A DNA stretch of 32,000 nt from an uncultured Candidatus Saccharibacteria bacterium (GCA_964543385.1 CAZIYE010000001.1:270001-302000), one strand, 5' to 3'. Positions 5,237 to 24,557 are shown, counted from the stretch's first letter. Program-made: numbers and translations. Notes: generated by a model from the letters alone, not told the origin.

Positions 5237-5279
5237 AGGGGAATTTTACCATACAAAAAAGCCAATTTATACTCTAAGT

Positions 5280-5395
<116 letters not shown>

Positions 5396-5614: not shown

Positions 5615-5629
<15 letters not shown>
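5596..5629 (-). promoter_or_regulatory. 23S trailer half of the processing stem
   Basis: 5596-5614 is the exact reverse complement (19/19) of 8525-8543. 5614-5629 pairs with 8434-8450 in a helix-1-like stem. Confidence 0.75.
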
Positions 5630-8433
<2,804 letters not shown>

Positions 8434-8445
<12 letters not shown>

Positions 8446-13227: not shown

Positions 13228-13503
13228 TTATTTAGTTGATCTTCTCTTTTCGAATAGTAGGCTAACCAGAACTACGATTCCAACACCGATCACCCACCAG
13301 ATTAGAATATCGGTCATCAAGTATAAATAATTTACTGATATTTGCCTTCCATCCATCGGAGTGTCCGGGATGAATTTTATTGGATAACCGCTACCGTTAC
13401 CTCTTCCAATAACGATCCCTTCTTTATTCGATGCAGAGCCAGACGTTACAATAAAAATAATTAGTCCAACAAAAAAGCCATAAATTATCTTGTTCAGCTT
13501 TAT
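13228..13503 (-). CDS. small membrane protein, ~91 aa, no canonical start codon (putative ATA start)
   Basis: A 94-codon open frame runs from TAG to TAA. AAGGAGG (13515..13509) is followed by tcatt then ATA (13503..13501). There are N-terminal and C-terminal hydrophobic helices. The ORF is absent from the ATG/GTG/TTG ORF track. Confidence 0.45.
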   Translation of the reverse strand: MKLNKIIYGFFVGLIIFIVTSGSASNKEGIVIGRGNGSGYPIKFIPDTPMDGRQISVNYLYLMTDILIWWVIGVGIVVLVSLLFEKRRSTK

Positions 13504-13622: not shown

Positions 13623-13698
13623 TGGTGGACCCTAGGGGATTCGAACTCCTGACCTCCTCAGTGCAAATGAGGCGCTCTACCAACTAAGCTAAGGGCCC
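13623..13698 (-). tRNA. tRNA-Ala (anticodon UGC), CCA encoded
   Basis: Cloverleaf read by hand: acceptor GGGCCCT/AGGGTCC with the G3:U70 Ala identity pair, anticodon loop TTTGCAC, T-loop TTCGAAT. Confidence 0.9.
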
Positions 13699-14434: not shown

Positions 14435-15778
14435 TTATTCTTGTCGCCAATTTAAAACAGTATAATTTCCAGTAGTAGGAAACTGAGGTGGCGGTGAAAG
14501 TGTCAGATAGGGATCATAGGTCTGATTTGTTGACCTATATCCGCTAGTCACCGTCGTTCCACTTACCCAGCTCCAAGTCCACGTCAAATTTGATGCGATA
14601 GAGCCATAAACCGAGATACTGTCTTTAACATAACCATTCGCCTGCGGAAACCACACGTGACCTTTTTGTGCAAGCAATGCAGCATTTATTTCAAGATCAT
14701 TAGCAGCATAAGATGGAACGACAATATCTCCTTGAGATATAAGTCCGATACTGGCAGTACCGTCTTTAGCAGAATAAAGCAGATTATCTTTTATGGCAAT
14801 TTTAGCCGTCTGATTACCATGAGAAGACTCTGCTGCAATTGTTATTTTCCCATTATAAGTTCCATCTACCCATACATTATCGCTAACATATACGATACCA
14901 TTTTCTGGCAGATCATGAGTCGAGAGAAGACTCGTTGTTATACCTGTGTTTCTCTCTCTGGTTACCTTGTGGACCTCAATATTTGAATTATTCAATTTCA
15001 GATAATACCCCAGACTATTAGAAGGATCTAAATAAATACCATCCTGCTGAGCTTCAATCTTAATATTATTCAGATCAACAGAGACTCGGTTAAAATCTAC
15101 TGGCGGTACAGGAAAAACCCAAAACCCTATTGGTCCCCCATTACCCCAAACTCCATCATGATATTGCCCGTCTCCGCCAAAGTTATTTGACGGCTTATAA
15201 GTTTTCGAAGAGGAAGAGATAATTCCGTTACCCACACCATCAAAATGAACTCCGATATTAGAATGAACAGGACCGTTCGTCGCTTCGTCTGACCCAAACC
15301 AACATTCAGTATTTGTGACAAAAGAATATCGAGCAAATGATGGCATTCCGATATCTGCAACTACCACACTTTCTGATTTGGCATTTTGAAGCTTACCAAT
15401 TGATTTTACTTTTACAACCGCTTCCCCTTGGAGCGGTGGCGTAATATAAAGACTGTAAGTGCCGATAACCTCACCCTTGAAATTCTTATATTCATGAGTA
15501 AAAGGGCCAAATGATGGGCCGCTACCGCATGAACCACCATCACAGTAATCAGTATTGTCATGAGAAAGATGCCACATATAATAATTCACACCAGCCTCGG
15601 CAACTTCAAGCGATGAAATCACTTTTTCATGATATGCTGCCCTCTTTACATTGGCCATTGCTATTCCCACCAAAGCAGATGCGAATGCAATAAACAAAAC
15701 AGACGCAAGAAGTATCCCAGGCAGATAGGAACCTTTTCTATATTTACAAAATCTAATTTTTTTAAAGATAGTCATCAT
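14435..15778 (-). CDS. PilX-N-like type IV pilus minor component, 447 aa
   Basis: N-terminal KGSYLPGILLASVLFIAFASALVG anchor followed by EVAEAGVNYYMWHL, a PilX_N-like pattern. ATGA overlap with the upstream pilin gene. Confidence 0.7.
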   Translation of the reverse strand: MMTIFKKIRFCKYRKGSYLPGILLASVLFIAFASALVGIAMANVKRAAYHEKVISSLEVAEAGVNYYMWHLSHDNTDYCDGGSCGSGPSFGPFTHEYKNFKGEVIGTYSLYITPPLQGEAVVKVKSIGKLQNAKSESVVVADIGMPSFARYSFVTNTECWFGSDEATNGPVHSNIGVHFDGVGNGIISSSSKTYKPSNNFGGDGQYHDGVWGNGGPIGFWVFPVPPVDFNRVSVDLNNIKIEAQQDGIYLDPSNSLGYYLKLNNSNIEVHKVTRERNTGITTSLLSTHDLPENGIVYVSDNVWVDGTYNGKITIAAESSHGNQTAKIAIKDNLLYSAKDGTASIGLISQGDIVVPSYAANDLEINAALLAQKGHVWFPQANGYVKDSISVYGSIASNLTWTWSWVSGTTVTSGYRSTNQTYDPYLTLSPPPQFPTTGNYTVLNWRQE

Positions 15779-16359
15779 AAATTATTTTTTAGGTTTCTCA
15801 ATTGTACAGCTGTCGATTGCTCTGCAGACTCAGGGGATGCATTAATATCATTATCAATTTCTATCGACATCTTTATTAATCTTACAACATCATTTTGAAT
15901 TGGAAACTCTAGTTCGCTATTAGCATCATTATAATACTTGAACAAATTTACAGAAATCACATTTTCGGCAATCTTTTTGATTTCTTTTTGAGAATCCGGA
16001 TAAATAAAAGTATTTTCTGCAATTATAGGAGAAATGCTATAACGATATAGACTGTTGCCATCTAAATAATAGCTAATTTTACTCGGCGCGGGATTAGTAT
16101 CCCCTTTCAAATACGAATAAAAAGTTAAATTATTGGAATTAGCCGATATAATTGCTGTTGTGCCCCTAGACATCTTTTCAAAATCCCTAGCAGCTATCGC
16201 CGCTTGTTCATTTAAAGCAATGCGCTTTGTTCCGAGACGATATTGCTTGTTTCCACTGGTATAAAGGGATGCTATTATTAAGCCCAAGATACCGACTAAC
16301 ACTACAGTTACTATCATCTCCATAAGAGAAAAACCATTTTTTTTATCTGTCATTGTCAT
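15775..16359 (-). CDS. prepilin-type N-terminal cleavage/methylation domain protein (minor pilin/pseudopilin)
   Basis: Class III signal KKNG|FSLMEMIVTVVLVGILGLI, with Glu at +5. Confidence 0.85.
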   Translation of the reverse strand: MTMTDKKNGFSLMEMIVTVVLVGILGLIIASLYTSGNKQYRLGTKRIALNEQAAIAARDFEKMSRGTTAIISANSNNLTFYSYLKGDTNPAPSKISYYLDGNSLYRYSISPIIAENTFIYPDSQKEIKKIAENVISVNLFKYYNDANSELEFPIQNDVVRLIKMSIEIDNDINASPESAEQSTAVQLRNLKNNL

Positions 16360-16361
16360 AT

Positions 16362-17738
16362 TTAAGGATTTATTATATTGAAACCGTTTGCTTGGGATAC
16401 AAATTCGCCATTAATATTAGTAACAACGATGTGATAAAGTCCAGCTTCTGTACCAACAAGATTGAAATCTGCCACTATCTGATTATGTTGAGAAACCTCA
16501 ATATTTGTACCGATTATTTCAGCGCCCGTACTACTGTTCACAATCTTTATGTTTGCGCCATTATCAAAATTATTTCCATCAACCGTTATTGAAATATTAT
16601 CGCCAACTGTTCCATTAGAAGGTAATGAATTATAAATAACAGGATTAGAACCAGAAGAAGAAAGCGTAGCCAAGACAACTAAATTTACCTCCGGAGTCAG
16701 TCTTATTGGTTGAGCAGGTGAGGTAGATATTAGATTCATTTCTGAAACATTCTTTATTTTATAGTCATCAAACTCAAGATTTGGAATTCTAATATATCCC
16801 TGAGCGTCAGTTGTGAATATTTGTGAATATTTGAAAGTGTCTGGATTATTGTAAATCATCTTACTGCCCTCTAACGTAAAGCCAATGTTTGGGACGGGAC
16901 TTCCAGATTGATCCCTAAATGTTATTTCCATAACTGAAAGTTTATCTATTACTAAAGTAACGCCAGTAACCTGTTGTACGATAATATCCACATCCGGCTC
17001 TAGAGCATTAGGATTTTGTGATGTCCTAGGATAAGTCTGCGAAGTTGAATACCCATTCTTAGTAACAACAATATGATAATTATTATGTTGATCTGGCGGT
17101 AACTTTGGAATTAAAAGACAGCCATCATCTCCCGTAGTCATTGAAATATCAATCTGCGGAACCAAAACAAGGTTTTCTACACGCACATCAGCACCAGATA
17201 CAGGATTACCCAAATTATCAATTACACAAAAGTTTAATATTCCCGTATCGCTTGGGGTTTCAGCAGCCTTTGCAGAAACGTTTGTCACAAGTTTTGCAAG
17301 CTGACTATTCCTGCCTTTCTTGCCGACCGTTATCTCTACTTTTTTATAATCATATGGATAAAGGTCTTGTGGTTTCCCGGCAATATTGCCAGCTGCGTTA
17401 CCATCAAAAGGATCATCAACATAGCTAATTACTGTATGCACGTTAAAAGCAGTGCCGTTTCTATTTACGGACTCGTCATCAAGAATGTTACCCTGTGGGT
17501 ATATCGATCCATGTTGTGTTGATAGATCATCATAGGGCATATTGCGAATCATTTCCATTCGCTCATTTGACAAGGTCACCGCCACCATCTTTGCTTTTGC
17601 CAAGTTTATCGATTTAAAGGCAGCTGCATATCCAGAGACTATAGCGACTGCCACCATCGAAACAATCATAAAATCGATCAACACTTCGATGAGCGTAAAT
17701 CCCTGTTTCGTTTTTAGATCTTTACTGGAAAATATTAT
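16362..17738 (-). CDS. large PilV-like prepilin with beta-sandwich (carboxypeptidase-regulatory-like) repeats, ~458 aa. True start lies upstream of the ORF-track GTG.
   Basis: In-frame KTKQG|FTLIEVLI lies at 17702-17671, upstream of GTG 17684. No ATG/GTG/TTG occurs between the TAA at 17778-17780 and the motif. AGGAGGGG (17749..17742) is followed by ATA ATA (17738..17733). Confidence 0.75.
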   Translation of the reverse strand: MIFSSKDLKTKQGFTLIEVLIDFMIVSMVAVAIVSGYAAAFKSINLAKAKMVAVTLSNERMEMIRNMPYDDLSTQHGSIYPQGNILDDESVNRNGTAFNVHTVISYVDDPFDGNAAGNIAGKPQDLYPYDYKKVEITVGKKGRNSQLAKLVTNVSAKAAETPSDTGILNFCVIDNLGNPVSGADVRVENLVLVPQIDISMTTGDDGCLLIPKLPPDQHNNYHIVVTKNGYSTSQTYPRTSQNPNALEPDVDIIVQQVTGVTLVIDKLSVMEITFRDQSGSPVPNIGFTLEGSKMIYNNPDTFKYSQIFTTDAQGYIRIPNLEFDDYKIKNVSEMNLISTSPAQPIRLTPEVNLVVLATLSSSGSNPVIYNSLPSNGTVGDNISITVDGNNFDNGANIKIVNSSTGAEIIGTNIEVSQHNQIVADFNLVGTEAGLYHIVVTNINGEFVSQANGFNIINP

Positions 17739-17791
17739 TAGCCCCTCCTGACTAATATTAAAGTATTCAAGGTTATTTTATCACGAATGAA

Positions 17792-17801
17792 TAGCACATA
17801 G
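17792..17801. repeat. 10-bp direct repeat TAGCACATAG, left copy
   Basis: The identical 10-mer recurs at 18413-18422. Together they bracket the GC-rich ORF and its hairpin. Confidence 0.5.
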
Positions 17802-17830
17802 AAGCACTAATATATAGAAAATAATTTTGG

Positions 17831-17860
17831 TCCGGCCGCTACTAGTAAGCAGAGGCCGGG
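17831..17860 (-). terminator. GC hairpin TCCGGCC...GGCCGGG after ORF 17886..18401
   Basis: 6 GC pairs plus one G.U, 16-nt loop. The downstream tract is only moderately T-rich. Confidence 0.45.
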
Positions 17861-17885
17861 ATATGACGCGAGAAAGCTCAAATAT

Positions 17886-18401
17886 CTATGGGGTCTGTTC
17901 CCCCATGAAATATTGGAGTCCACTCTCGTCGAGGGGAACGGCCACCTCCATCTTGCACAGTACCGTTGTGTTGCCAGAGTCAGACCGGCTGGTAAAGGCC
18001 GGCATCAGGTCAATGACATGGTAGGCTGCTCGTGATACCGGAATGGCTTTCGCCATCTCGATAGCACGATCGAGGTTGGCATGGGCCTGCGGACAACGCA
18101 GACACAAGGATTCGAGGTACCCCTCAGGAAATGGCTCATCACGTCGAGCGTGATAGAGAATCACCTCCAGAAAGGGTGTCCACGGGCCGCTGGACGGCTC
18201 ATGTTTTGTTGTGCGCTGAACCGTACGAAGGGCAATACCACCGTCATCTCGGTCACGGTCATTGTCGGAAACAACAATGAAGGTTTCAGCCTTCTTTGTT
18301 TTTCGCAATACCGGACAATTGATGCAGTTAATGTTTCCTTCATCACGGCGAGTCAGACATATGGATTCTACCCCAGGTAGATCCAACGCCGATGTAGACA
18401 T
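17886..18401 (-). CDS. hypothetical protein, 171 aa, GC-rich orphan with CINCP...CLRCP Cys pairs
   Basis: A 171-codon ORF in a segment where line 18061-18120 counts 34/60 G+C, against 21/60 in the neighbouring gene. AAGGGGG SD lies 5 nt before the ATG. Confidence 0.6.
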   Translation of the reverse strand: MSTSALDLPGVESICLTRRDEGNINCINCPVLRKTKKAETFIVVSDNDRDRDDGGIALRTVQRTTKHEPSSGPWTPFLEVILYHARRDEPFPEGYLESLCLRCPQAHANLDRAIEMAKAIPVSRAAYHVIDLMPAFTSRSDSGNTTVLCKMEVAVPLDESGLQYFMGEQTP

Positions 18402-18412
18402 AACTACCCCCT

Positions 18413-18422
18413 TAGCACATAG
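18413..18422. repeat. 10-bp direct repeat TAGCACATAG, right copy
   Basis: See 17792-17801. It lies immediately upstream of the SD of ORF 17886..18401. Confidence 0.5.
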
Positions 18423-18483
18423 TTCTGCGGCAATACTACCAAATTAATATTGATAAGAAAAGCTTTGGAGATAGCTGCTGTTT

Positions 18484-19506
18484 CTATTTTATCTTATGAT
18501 TTGCAAAAGGATCACGGATCTTAATCACCCCAGCCTTCACATCTCCAATTCCGACATATAGATCAGCAGTACCATCTTTATTCCTGTGCAATCCCCCACT
18601 AAAAATAATTTTTCCTAGATCGTTTTTCTTTGGTGCTACGGGTGGAAATTCATCTGCAGTTGTTAATATTTCCATATGAGTATGATTTTTTGTTTTTGGA
18701 TCAAAAATAAAAGCCATAGCATAATAATGTCGTACATCTCCATCAAAATGTGCGATATGGCCCAAAACACCTATTCTGCCACCATCTAGCAAATGCAGCT
18801 CATTTACTCCTCCCCACTCATCATCATGAAATTGATTTTCTATGATTCTCGCCTTCGGAATAGCATCTTCAAGTTGGTCAAGATTTTCTATCTCTATGTA
18901 TCCAATTTTTCCAAGACCAGCATTGTTGCCTTGTGGACGGGTAAATACACCTATCTTGCCACTATTCAGACCTATAAGCCTTATATCCTTCATACCCTTT
19001 GAACCTTTTGCGAAAGGTTCAATGACAAAACCATCCTTGTTAAATAACTCCAATAAAGTTTTTTTATATCTATAAAAATAAGTTTGATAGTAAGCTATTT
19101 TCCCGTCTTCTTGATGGATATGTACTCCACCAACTATATTGTATCCCTGAATATCTTCATTATAAAAAGGATCTTGGAGACCTAATACAGGAGCCTCATC
19201 AACTAGTCTCCAAACATTACCGCTCTCTTCAAAAAACATTATTTTTGAATCTTCCGAGTTTAAAGGCTCTACTCTCCCGAACAAATACCTTTTTGAGTCA
19301 GATATAATAGGTTTTGTAATATTATAAATTGATATGTTGGTTGCTTCCAAATGTGTGTCAAAATGTTTCTTTAATATTTGTGGACTCTCCTCAATATCAA
19401 AAGATAGCAACTCTCCCTTGTCTAATTTACGGTTTCTATTGGCATCATAATAAATTGCTAGAAGTTCATTTGCGCTCTTTGCTTTTGCCTGATCATATTT
19501 TTTCAT
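18484..19506 (-). CDS. cytoplasmic beta-propeller-like protein (DUF1861/GH43-like; tentative), 340 aa
   Basis: No signal peptide. Repeated beta-strand/Gly-turn pattern (GGVHIH, GKIGYIE, GGRIGVLGH, GGLHRNKDGTADLYVGIGD). Family assignment is from memory and unverified. Confidence 0.7.
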   Translation of the reverse strand: MKKYDQAKAKSANELLAIYYDANRNRKLDKGELLSFDIEESPQILKKHFDTHLEATNISIYNITKPIISDSKRYLFGRVEPLNSEDSKIMFFEESGNVWRLVDEAPVLGLQDPFYNEDIQGYNIVGGVHIHQEDGKIAYYQTYFYRYKKTLLELFNKDGFVIEPFAKGSKGMKDIRLIGLNSGKIGVFTRPQGNNAGLGKIGYIEIENLDQLEDAIPKARIIENQFHDDEWGGVNELHLLDGGRIGVLGHIAHFDGDVRHYYAMAFIFDPKTKNHTHMEILTTADEFPPVAPKKNDLGKIIFSGGLHRNKDGTADLYVGIGDVKAGVIKIRDPFANHKIK

Positions 19507-21361: not shown

Positions 21362-21438
21362 TGGTGGGCGCGGGAGAACTCGAATCTCCGACCCCGTCAT
21401 TATCAGTGACGTGCTCTAACCAACTGAGCTACGCGCCC
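21362..21438 (-). tRNA. tRNA-Ile (anticodon GAU), CCA encoded
   Basis: GGGCGCGTAGCTCAGTTGGTTAGAGCACGTCACTGATAATGACGGGGTCGGAGATTCGAGTTCTCCCGCGCCCACCA. Anticodon loop is CTGATAA. Confidence 0.92.
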
Positions 21439-22961: not shown

Positions 22962-24408
<1,447 letters not shown>

Positions 24409-24557
24409 GTAAACAATGCACCAAAGTGCATCGTTTTTATTGAGTTTGATTAGCTCTATAAAAATACTAATCAAAAATTATTCTCTCAAAAGAATTGCCT
24501 ACTAGACCCTTCAGCTCCGCCAATAAATTGGCTTTGCTTCTAGGTTTTTCAGACAAA

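Follow-up and report, generated by a model that had tools for sequence, protein, structure and literature searches.

Where does translation begin in a gene whose export signal lies upstream of every codon that could ordinarily start it? The question is raised by the first gene of a three-gene operon on the minus strand of a 32,000-nucleotide stretch of DNA (the window) from an uncultured Candidatus Saccharibacteria bacterium (GCA_964543385.1, CAZIYE010000001.1:270001-302000; positions are counted from the first letter of the window). The genome comprises 0.9 Mb in 4 contigs and is 98.7% complete. We consider it quite probable that the gene (17738..16362, minus strand) specifies a modular minor type IV pilin of 458 residues, initiated at an AUA codon behind a strong Shine-Dalgarno (SD) sequence, a conserved weak start that would lower its output.

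A reading frame open upstream of its canonical starts

The frame of the large open reading frame (ORF) that ends at 16362 is open back to a TAA at 17780-17778. This stop is followed by 26 sense codons, ending in SSKDLKTKQG, and then by FTLIEVLID; the frame reads NNLEYFNISQEGLIIFSSKDLKTKQG, then FTLIEVLIDFMIV. A class III (prepilin) signal is present (KDLKTKQG, then FTLIE): the leader is basic and has Gly at position -1, Phe stands at +1 and Glu at +5, and the helix is hydrophobic. The Phe, the Glu and an extra Asp at +9 are invariant in 13 orthologues (F9, E13 and D17 of alignment A1). The initial annotation had placed this signal ahead of all canonical start codons, and the frame bears it out: there is no ATG, GTG or TTG between the TAA and the GTG at 17684-17682. 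That GTG, at which the ORF track begins the gene, does lie in the conserved pilin helix, as both the ORF listing and the minus-strand reading show.

The SD sequence at 17749-17742 is followed by cta, by ATA at 17738-17736 and by a second ATA at 17735-17733. The distances of 5 and 8 nt previously given for the two ATA codons are correct with GGAGG as the reference; with the end of the full AGGAGGGG as reference, the values become 3 and 6 nt. The 16S rRNA encoded in the same window has the 3' end ...GATCACCTCCTTTCT, which is a normal anti-SD sequence. The features of the locus, all on the minus strand, are listed below with the evidence for each.

17742..17749, minus strand: SD sequence AGGAGGGG (sequence, and the same place in orthologues)
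17736..17738, minus strand: proposed start codon ATA (AUA), 5 nt past GGAGG (orthologue comparison)
17700..17738, minus strand: leader peptide of 13 codons, (M)IFSSKDLKTKQG, basic, Gly at -1 (sequence)
16365..17699, minus strand: mature minor pilin, 445 amino acids (Pfam, AF2 model, Foldseek)
16362..16364, minus strand: stop codon TAA of the pilin gene (ORF listing)
17682..17684, minus strand: GTG of the mechanical ORF call, within the conserved FTLIE-V-LID helix and without a preceding SD
17667..17669, minus strand: ATG of the public gene call, in the pilin helix; its 435-residue product lacks the signal and begins MIVSMVAV

At a background frequency of 4.8% per codon, canonical starts would be missing from some 31 successive codons with a chance of about 0.2, which is not improbable by itself. 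What is non-random is that a full class III signal lies upstream of all canonical starts and that the arrangement is conserved in orthologues. Comparison with these orthologues indicates that GTG 17684 is not the real start, the codon being an Ile/Val position that is spelled differently elsewhere.

The initial annotation had left two ways out, non-canonical initiation or a sequence error. An independent Logan assembly of the single run SRR12261224, whose contig occurs in 3 samples, has 0 mismatches over 3308 nt, including the start region, and carries the same 435-residue gene call. Orthologues from dozens of other assemblies likewise have no canonical start. Because the independent assembly is identical and the orthologues agree, an error behind the missing start is effectively ruled out, and the orthologues described below support initiation at a non-canonical codon.

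The codon behind the Shine-Dalgarno sequence in the orthologous family

Orthologue loci (numbered with L) were collected from 40 related genomes, a species-level genome collection and metagenomes, and four close relatives were added by exact-protein look-up. The family was defined by the invariant Asp at mature position 9 (FTLIEVLID), a criterion independent of the start codon, and the start regions were aligned, as had been proposed with the first description of the locus. GGAGG(GG) is found at the SD place in 38 distinct family members and in the four closest relatives. The in-frame codons located 4-6 nt past GGAGG in the 38 members are as follows.

ATC: 9
ATT: 7
ATA: 3
ACG: 3
GTG: 2
TTG: 2
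ATG: 0
Other, not start-like: 12

ATH (ATA, ATT or ATC) is therefore present at this spacing in 19 of the 38 members, versus 6.7% of 481 other leader codons. With the four closest relatives added, ATH follows GGAGG in 23 of 42 distinct orthologues, the rest including three ACG, four GTG or TTG and no ATG.

The closest relatives, at 82, 76, 64 and 62% identity, read GGAGGGG-CTA-ATA-AGA, GGAGGGG-CTA-ATC-AGA, GGAGGGG-CTG-ATA-ATT and GGAGGGG-CTG-ATA-ACT, respectively. The first codon is ATH in the window and in all four relatives, and the second is variable among them (ATA, AGA, AGA, ACT and ATT). The first ATA of the window, at 17738, is thus the conserved position, and on this comparison it is most likely the start of the pilin gene. 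A TAG abuts the SD in one of the four relatives, and in-frame stops shortly upstream of the SD, abutting it, or between it and the start are found in six orthologues (L003, L099, L109, L110, L168 and L009), in which initiation farther upstream is excluded by these stops.

When the mature proteins are placed on a maximum-likelihood tree, no major subclade is without ATH starts, and the tree requires 10 or more shifts of start class as well as 10 or more between ATA, ATT and ATC. The leader sequences around the start codon are barely alignable across the family. Since the tree shows ATH in all major subclades, with switches within it, the codon has been kept as ATH over long divergence. As read from the aligned loci, the putative ATH start (mostly ATT or ATC) is a conserved trait of the whole orthologous family, not a peculiarity of one genome.

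Distant homologues that lack the Asp at position 9 have ATG in 39 of 42 cases. Within the family, an SD match of at least 5 nt was found in 1 of 6 ATG-starting orthologues versus 22 of 24 with ATH or ACG, a comparison that is partly circular on the ATH side, where starts were assigned via the SD, its independent part being the weak SD of the ATG starters, from about four lineages. These numbers are suggestive of ATG-starting members mostly doing without a strong SD. Two orthologues (L007 and L150) contain GGAGGGG-AC/AT-ACG-AAA-AAA-GGT followed by TTT, the common MKKG leader with ACG replacing ATG, and ACG is their probable start. In another case (L004/L031; G021:C1 near 591.7 kb), leader and N-terminus are partially duplicated in tandem (…RKSSRKFG-FTLYKSNKVG-MPKAYLTG, then FTLIE), and the duplication has given rise to a new ATG, in frame and downstream of the ancestral GGAGGGG-ATT-ATT start.

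The arrangement is exceptional within the genome. Before long open frames, ATG is enriched 4-6 nt past GGAGG across the 0.9 Mb and ATA, ATT and ATC are not. A strict filter, which required a long ORF with an SD at 3-8 nt, no in-frame canonical start upstream and the first one far downstream, leaves the large pilin, infC and one 91-codon orphan membrane ORF (window 13503). The 9 other proteins of the genome with a class III signal have basic leaders and start at ATG or TTG, 6-12 codons before the cleavage site. A lineage-wide relaxation of start-codon usage was rejected on the absence of genome-wide ATH enrichment after GGAGG and on the three ORFs left by the filter. The infC gene (IF3_N domain; G000:C2 near 74524, minus strand, outside the window) has GGAG-N5-ATA (or N8-ATT), with its first canonical codon 37 codons downstream, and is the only other convincing ATA-type start in the genome besides the pilin. 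The 91-codon ORF (window 13231-13503, minus strand) is membrane-protein-like and is preceded by TATAAT and AAGGAGG-N5-ATA; its first canonical start is 49 codons in, and no homologue was found among the 40 related genomes.

Proposed initiation and the competing explanations

In the proposed mechanism, AUA 17738, 5 nt past the GGAGG of the strong SD AGGAGGGG, would initiate translation on a transcript with a short 5' untranslated region. The 13-residue basic leader ending in Gly would then be cleaved before Phe+1 by the prepilin peptidase of the genome (Peptidase_A24, 50.3 bits, over the cut-off), which is encoded at G000:C1:192375-192692 in the main pilin cluster. The family would keep AUU, AUC or AUA, occasionally ACG, GUG or UUG, and never AUG at SD spacing, and the combination of a strong SD with a poor start codon would hold initiation low. 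Where measured in model organisms, such weak starts give roughly 1-10% of the AUG equivalent, and initiation factor 3 (IF3) discriminates against start codons that are not AUG, GUG or UUG. Because IF3 rejects such codons, output would depend on IF3 activity, by the same logic as in infC, here in the form SD-N5-ATA. Attenuation of this kind would suit a minor pilin of low stoichiometry, acting at the tip or in priming. The absence of ATG at the optimal spacing, although a single transition converts ATA to ATG, is consistent with selection against high output. A more far-reaching version, in which the start is an IF3-gated translational valve that couples the tip or priming pilin, and so pilus assembly or host attachment, to the IF3 level, with a strong SD plus ATG selected against, is tentative and in our estimate rather doubtful.

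Comparable starts have been measured in other bacteria. AUA, AUU and AUC support about 1-2% of AUG initiation in Escherichia coli (bioRxiv 10.1101/063800). In Staphylococcus aureus, AUA is used at infC, ccpN and citZ and AUU at cvfC1, with extended SD motifs at infC, cvfC1 and ccpN; reporters for cvfC1, ccpN and citZ give about 10% of AUG, with ccpN reaching up to 30% in rich medium, and the authors ascribe the modulation of these non-canonical starts to IF3 (PMC13009471). The ATT start of Enterococcus faecalis EbpA attenuates pilus-tip display and downstream phenotypes (Montealegre et al. 2015, PMC4447247).

Several points weigh against this interpretation. The assignment of initiation to AUA 17738 comes from comparative anatomy, and the suggested purpose of attenuation and its modulation by IF3 are carried over from other organisms. 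The binomial probability of the ATH enrichment (p = 4e-13) ignores phylogeny and, the sequences being related, overstates the significance. The pattern is also not universal: an orthologue of 77% identity (L093) has AAC at 5 nt and its nearest ATT at 11 nt, and its in-frame ATGs overlap the SD or shortly precede it. Six orthologues (L093, L112, L113, L004, L169 and L160) carry ATG, GTG or TTG in frame right ahead of GAGGGG, and in this subset an alternative start at the codon abutting GAGGGG is possible. Finally, the Pfam N_methyl domain (PF07963) scores 17.7 bits, below the gathering cut-off of 21.2; TIGR02532 is not among the NCBIfam matches listed for the large pilin, and the neighbouring 194-residue prepilin passes both PF07963 and TIGR02532.

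The explanation closest to the proposed one moves initiation to another non-canonical codon: the second ATA (17735), an ATT at 17756 upstream of the SD, or the codon before GAGGGG (CAG here). The second ATA has a usable spacing, 8 nt past GGAGG, and an NTG abuts the SD in the six orthologues just mentioned. However, the closest relatives differ at the second codon (AGA, AGA, ACT and ATT) and have ATH throughout at the first; the codons that abut the SD or lie upstream of it lack an SD themselves and are excluded by in-frame stops in L168, L110, L109, L099 and L009. We regard such a shift of the start as unlikely. With a canonical start within the helix, at GTG 17684 or ATG 17669, the protein would lack a prepilin signal. 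No canonical codon of the frame comes before these two, and public gene calls use ATG 17669, but neither is preceded by an SD and the GTG codon is not conserved. Moreover, the residues upstream of them (basic leader, G, F+1 and E+5) are conserved as protein, F9, E13 and D17 of A1 being invariant, and the product would begin in mid-helix without cleavage site and Glu5, which makes an in-helix start very unlikely.

Loss of the start, with the gene decaying as a pseudogene, could be suspected from the lack of a canonical codon and from a GC-rich cassette that only this genome carries, inserted upstream of the SD at a distance of about 45 nt. Against decay stand the intact frame of 458 codons, the conservation of SD, ATH, leader and protein, many residues being invariant, across deep branches, and the same type of start in relatives without the cassette; we give it very little weight. 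Recoding is more improbable still. It would start from a 10-codon upstream ORF (TTG 17771 to TAA 17741-17739) that ends exactly at the ATA, and would proceed by a -1 shift via the SD-like G-run or by termination-reinitiation; SD-like sequences are known to stimulate frameshifts, as in prfB and dnaX. The upstream ORF, however, has no SD, TTG 17771 is not conserved, the corresponding frame of L166 has no canonical start at all, and other subclades have stops or different frames. A masked canonical start, for example an ATG miscalled as ATA in sequencing or assembly, is equally improbable: the genome is of the metagenome-assembled type and one A/G miscall would be enough, but the Logan assembly is identical at the site, the codon is ATA, ATC, ATA and ATA in relatives from other samples (82%, 76%, 64% and 62% identity, respectively), and about 20 more orthologues are without canonical starts.

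The pilin, its genomic setting and known systems

The large pilin contains, in addition to its N-terminal signal, matches to CarboxypepD_reg (37.7 bits at 172-235), a SpaA/prealbumin-like domain (276-330) and TIG (366-451) in Pfam. The AF2 model, built with 13 orthologues (pLDDT 74.6), consists of a helix (residues 11-60), a small beta head and three beta-sandwich domains. The hydrophobic N-terminal part of alpha-1 runs on into a long, 50-residue helix in this model. On the model and domain matches, the protein is a modular minor pilin in which a pilin module is predicted to be joined to independently folded domains. Foldseek returned only tandem immunoglobulin (Ig)-like adhesins and Gram-positive pilins at low TM (about 0.2); a specific function from the fold search was dropped, the matches being generic tandem Ig-like ones. 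The invariant Asp at mature position 9 (GAT, 17673-17675) sits within the membrane-embedded alpha-1 helix, besides Glu5. The -1 residue is Ala or Ser rather than Gly in several orthologues.

The initial annotation had called the gene PilV-like. The resemblance holds for the N-terminal helix, where similarity to PilV and GspI minor (pseudo)pilins is weak and limited to the first ~55 residues (leader and alpha-1 helix). Equivalog membership does not hold: TIGR02523 (PilV) reaches 19.9 bits where 52.2 are required, and TIGR01707 (GspI) 30.0 where the cut-off is 44.35. The pilin described here is also three times larger, and its C-terminal domains are unrelated.

The other two genes of the operon and the element upstream of it are as follows.

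15775..16359, minus strand: gene 2, a 194-residue prepilin with a normal ATG start, which serves as an internal control (ORF listing, Pfam)
14435..15778, minus strand: gene 3, 447 residues with a hydrophobic N-terminus, overlapping gene 2 by 4 nt (ORF listing)
17775..17783, minus strand: putative extended -10 promoter-like element TG-n-TAAAAT, overlapping the in-frame TAA (from the sequence)

Orthologues of gene 2 likewise begin with ATG. Searches of Pfam and NCBIfam with the 447-residue gene-3 protein gave no match. The operon sits between tRNA-Ile and tRNA-Ala within a set of rRNA genes that are in rrn order but dispersed, all on the minus strand (16S 22962-24411, tRNA-Ile 21362-21438, tRNA-Ala 13623-13698, 23S 5620-8441 and 5S 5279-5395).

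TGnTAAAAT is found at the equivalent place in the 77%-identical L093; in other subclades, TATAAT or TAAAAT precedes the SD by 10-15 nt. The element was not listed by a promoter consensus scan, which requires a -35 hexamer. A promoter of its own and a very short 5' leader are probable for the operon; given these, the codons past the SD would be the only candidate starts. A strong hairpin at 17832-17859 (minus strand; -20.2 kcal/mol, z = -3.8) with a U-rich tract behind it probably serves to terminate a preceding 171-residue ORF and would insulate the pilin operon. An Rfam search of the window and of 17600-18600 gave no RNA family at or near the pilin start. A further hairpin (17736-17757, minus strand; -7 kcal/mol) has AGGAGG in its loop and the ATA start codon in its stem, and is kept only in the five closest sequences (L001 and L166-L169). 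It was rejected as a family feature, such a fold being present in 47% of the family versus 48% of control genes.

The 171-residue ORF (17886-18401, minus strand) lies in a GC-rich patch at 17792-18422, directly upstream of the pilin promoter region, with 50-56% G+C versus about 36%. It is single-copy in the genome, is present in the independent assembly (L172) and has no Pfam or NCBIfam match. The GC-rich cassette is absent in L166, L167 and L168, where the pilin gene is preceded by a Na/H exchanger gene, an unrelated 119-residue ORF or a DUF1861 gene; the patch looks like a recent insertion.

Among known systems, E. faecalis EbpA offers the closest parallel: it is a pilus tip or minor subunit with a true rare ATH start upstream of the annotated ATG and a misannotated N-terminus, and its rare codon lowers translation and surface display. 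EbpA differs in belonging to a sortase-assembled Gram-positive pilus with a Sec signal, whereas the present protein, a type IV pilin, carries a class III signal. Mutagenesis has proven where EbpA starts, whereas the start of the pilin is inferred; the pilin trait is conserved across a deep clade of Patescibacteria. The infC gene (AUU/AUA) and E. coli pcnB (AUU) likewise have a non-canonical AUH behind an SD and are IF3-sensitive via IF3 discrimination. In infC, however, the control is autoregulatory and the product is the discriminator itself, whereas any IF3 dependence of the pilin would, by analogy, be a passive read-out. S. aureus cvfC1 (AUU) and ccpN (AUA) share a strong or extended SD and an AUU/AUA conserved among relatives; they are regulator genes of another phylum with starts mapped by Ribo-RET, and the pilin start comes from sequence comparison (PMC13009471).

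With respect to the protein, modular minor pilins such as Streptococcus sanguinis PilB (PMC8179133) and PilX1/PilX2 of TM7x (PMC11623550) also combine an N-terminal pilin module with likely adhesive domains. PilX1 and PilX2 share the Patescibacteria context with the present pilin, TM7x being a member of the Saccharibacteria, and are minor pilins considered as candidate tip proteins. The domain types differ, the beta-sandwiches here being CarboxypepD_reg, prealbumin-like and TIG, and the likeness is one of modular layout and context. The TM7x pilin paper (PMC11623550) mentions no start-codon peculiarity, and no mention of this start-codon feature of the pilin family was found in the literature searched. 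The class of mechanism is already known from infC, pcnB, EbpA and ccpN/cvfC1; its deeply conserved occurrence in a family of type IV minor pilins of Patescibacteria is the new element.

The unusual start has consequences for annotation. Gene finders limited to ATG, GTG and TTG truncate the pilin inside its transmembrane helix. Of the best 120 database homologues, 52 lack the signal pattern and about 48 of these begin in the helix, including the 435-residue call of the window itself; the Pfam N_methyl domain is recognized in only about 12 of the 120. Overall, some 40% of the database homologues carry an annotation that leaves the signal out. Because the annotated starts cut off the signal, these proteins are widely filed as 'hypothetical' or 'carboxypeptidase regulatory-like', not as pilins.

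The family would represent a conserved type IV pilus component of ultra-small episymbiotic bacteria. Bacterial genes that retain a start codon other than AUG, GUG or UUG make up a very short list, to which it would be a family-wide, deeply conserved addition. Its product would be a surface-organelle subunit that is plausibly needed at low stoichiometry, a parallel to EbpA of enterococci. The locus thereby offers a concrete hypothesis on how expression may be tuned in genome-reduced bacteria with few regulators.

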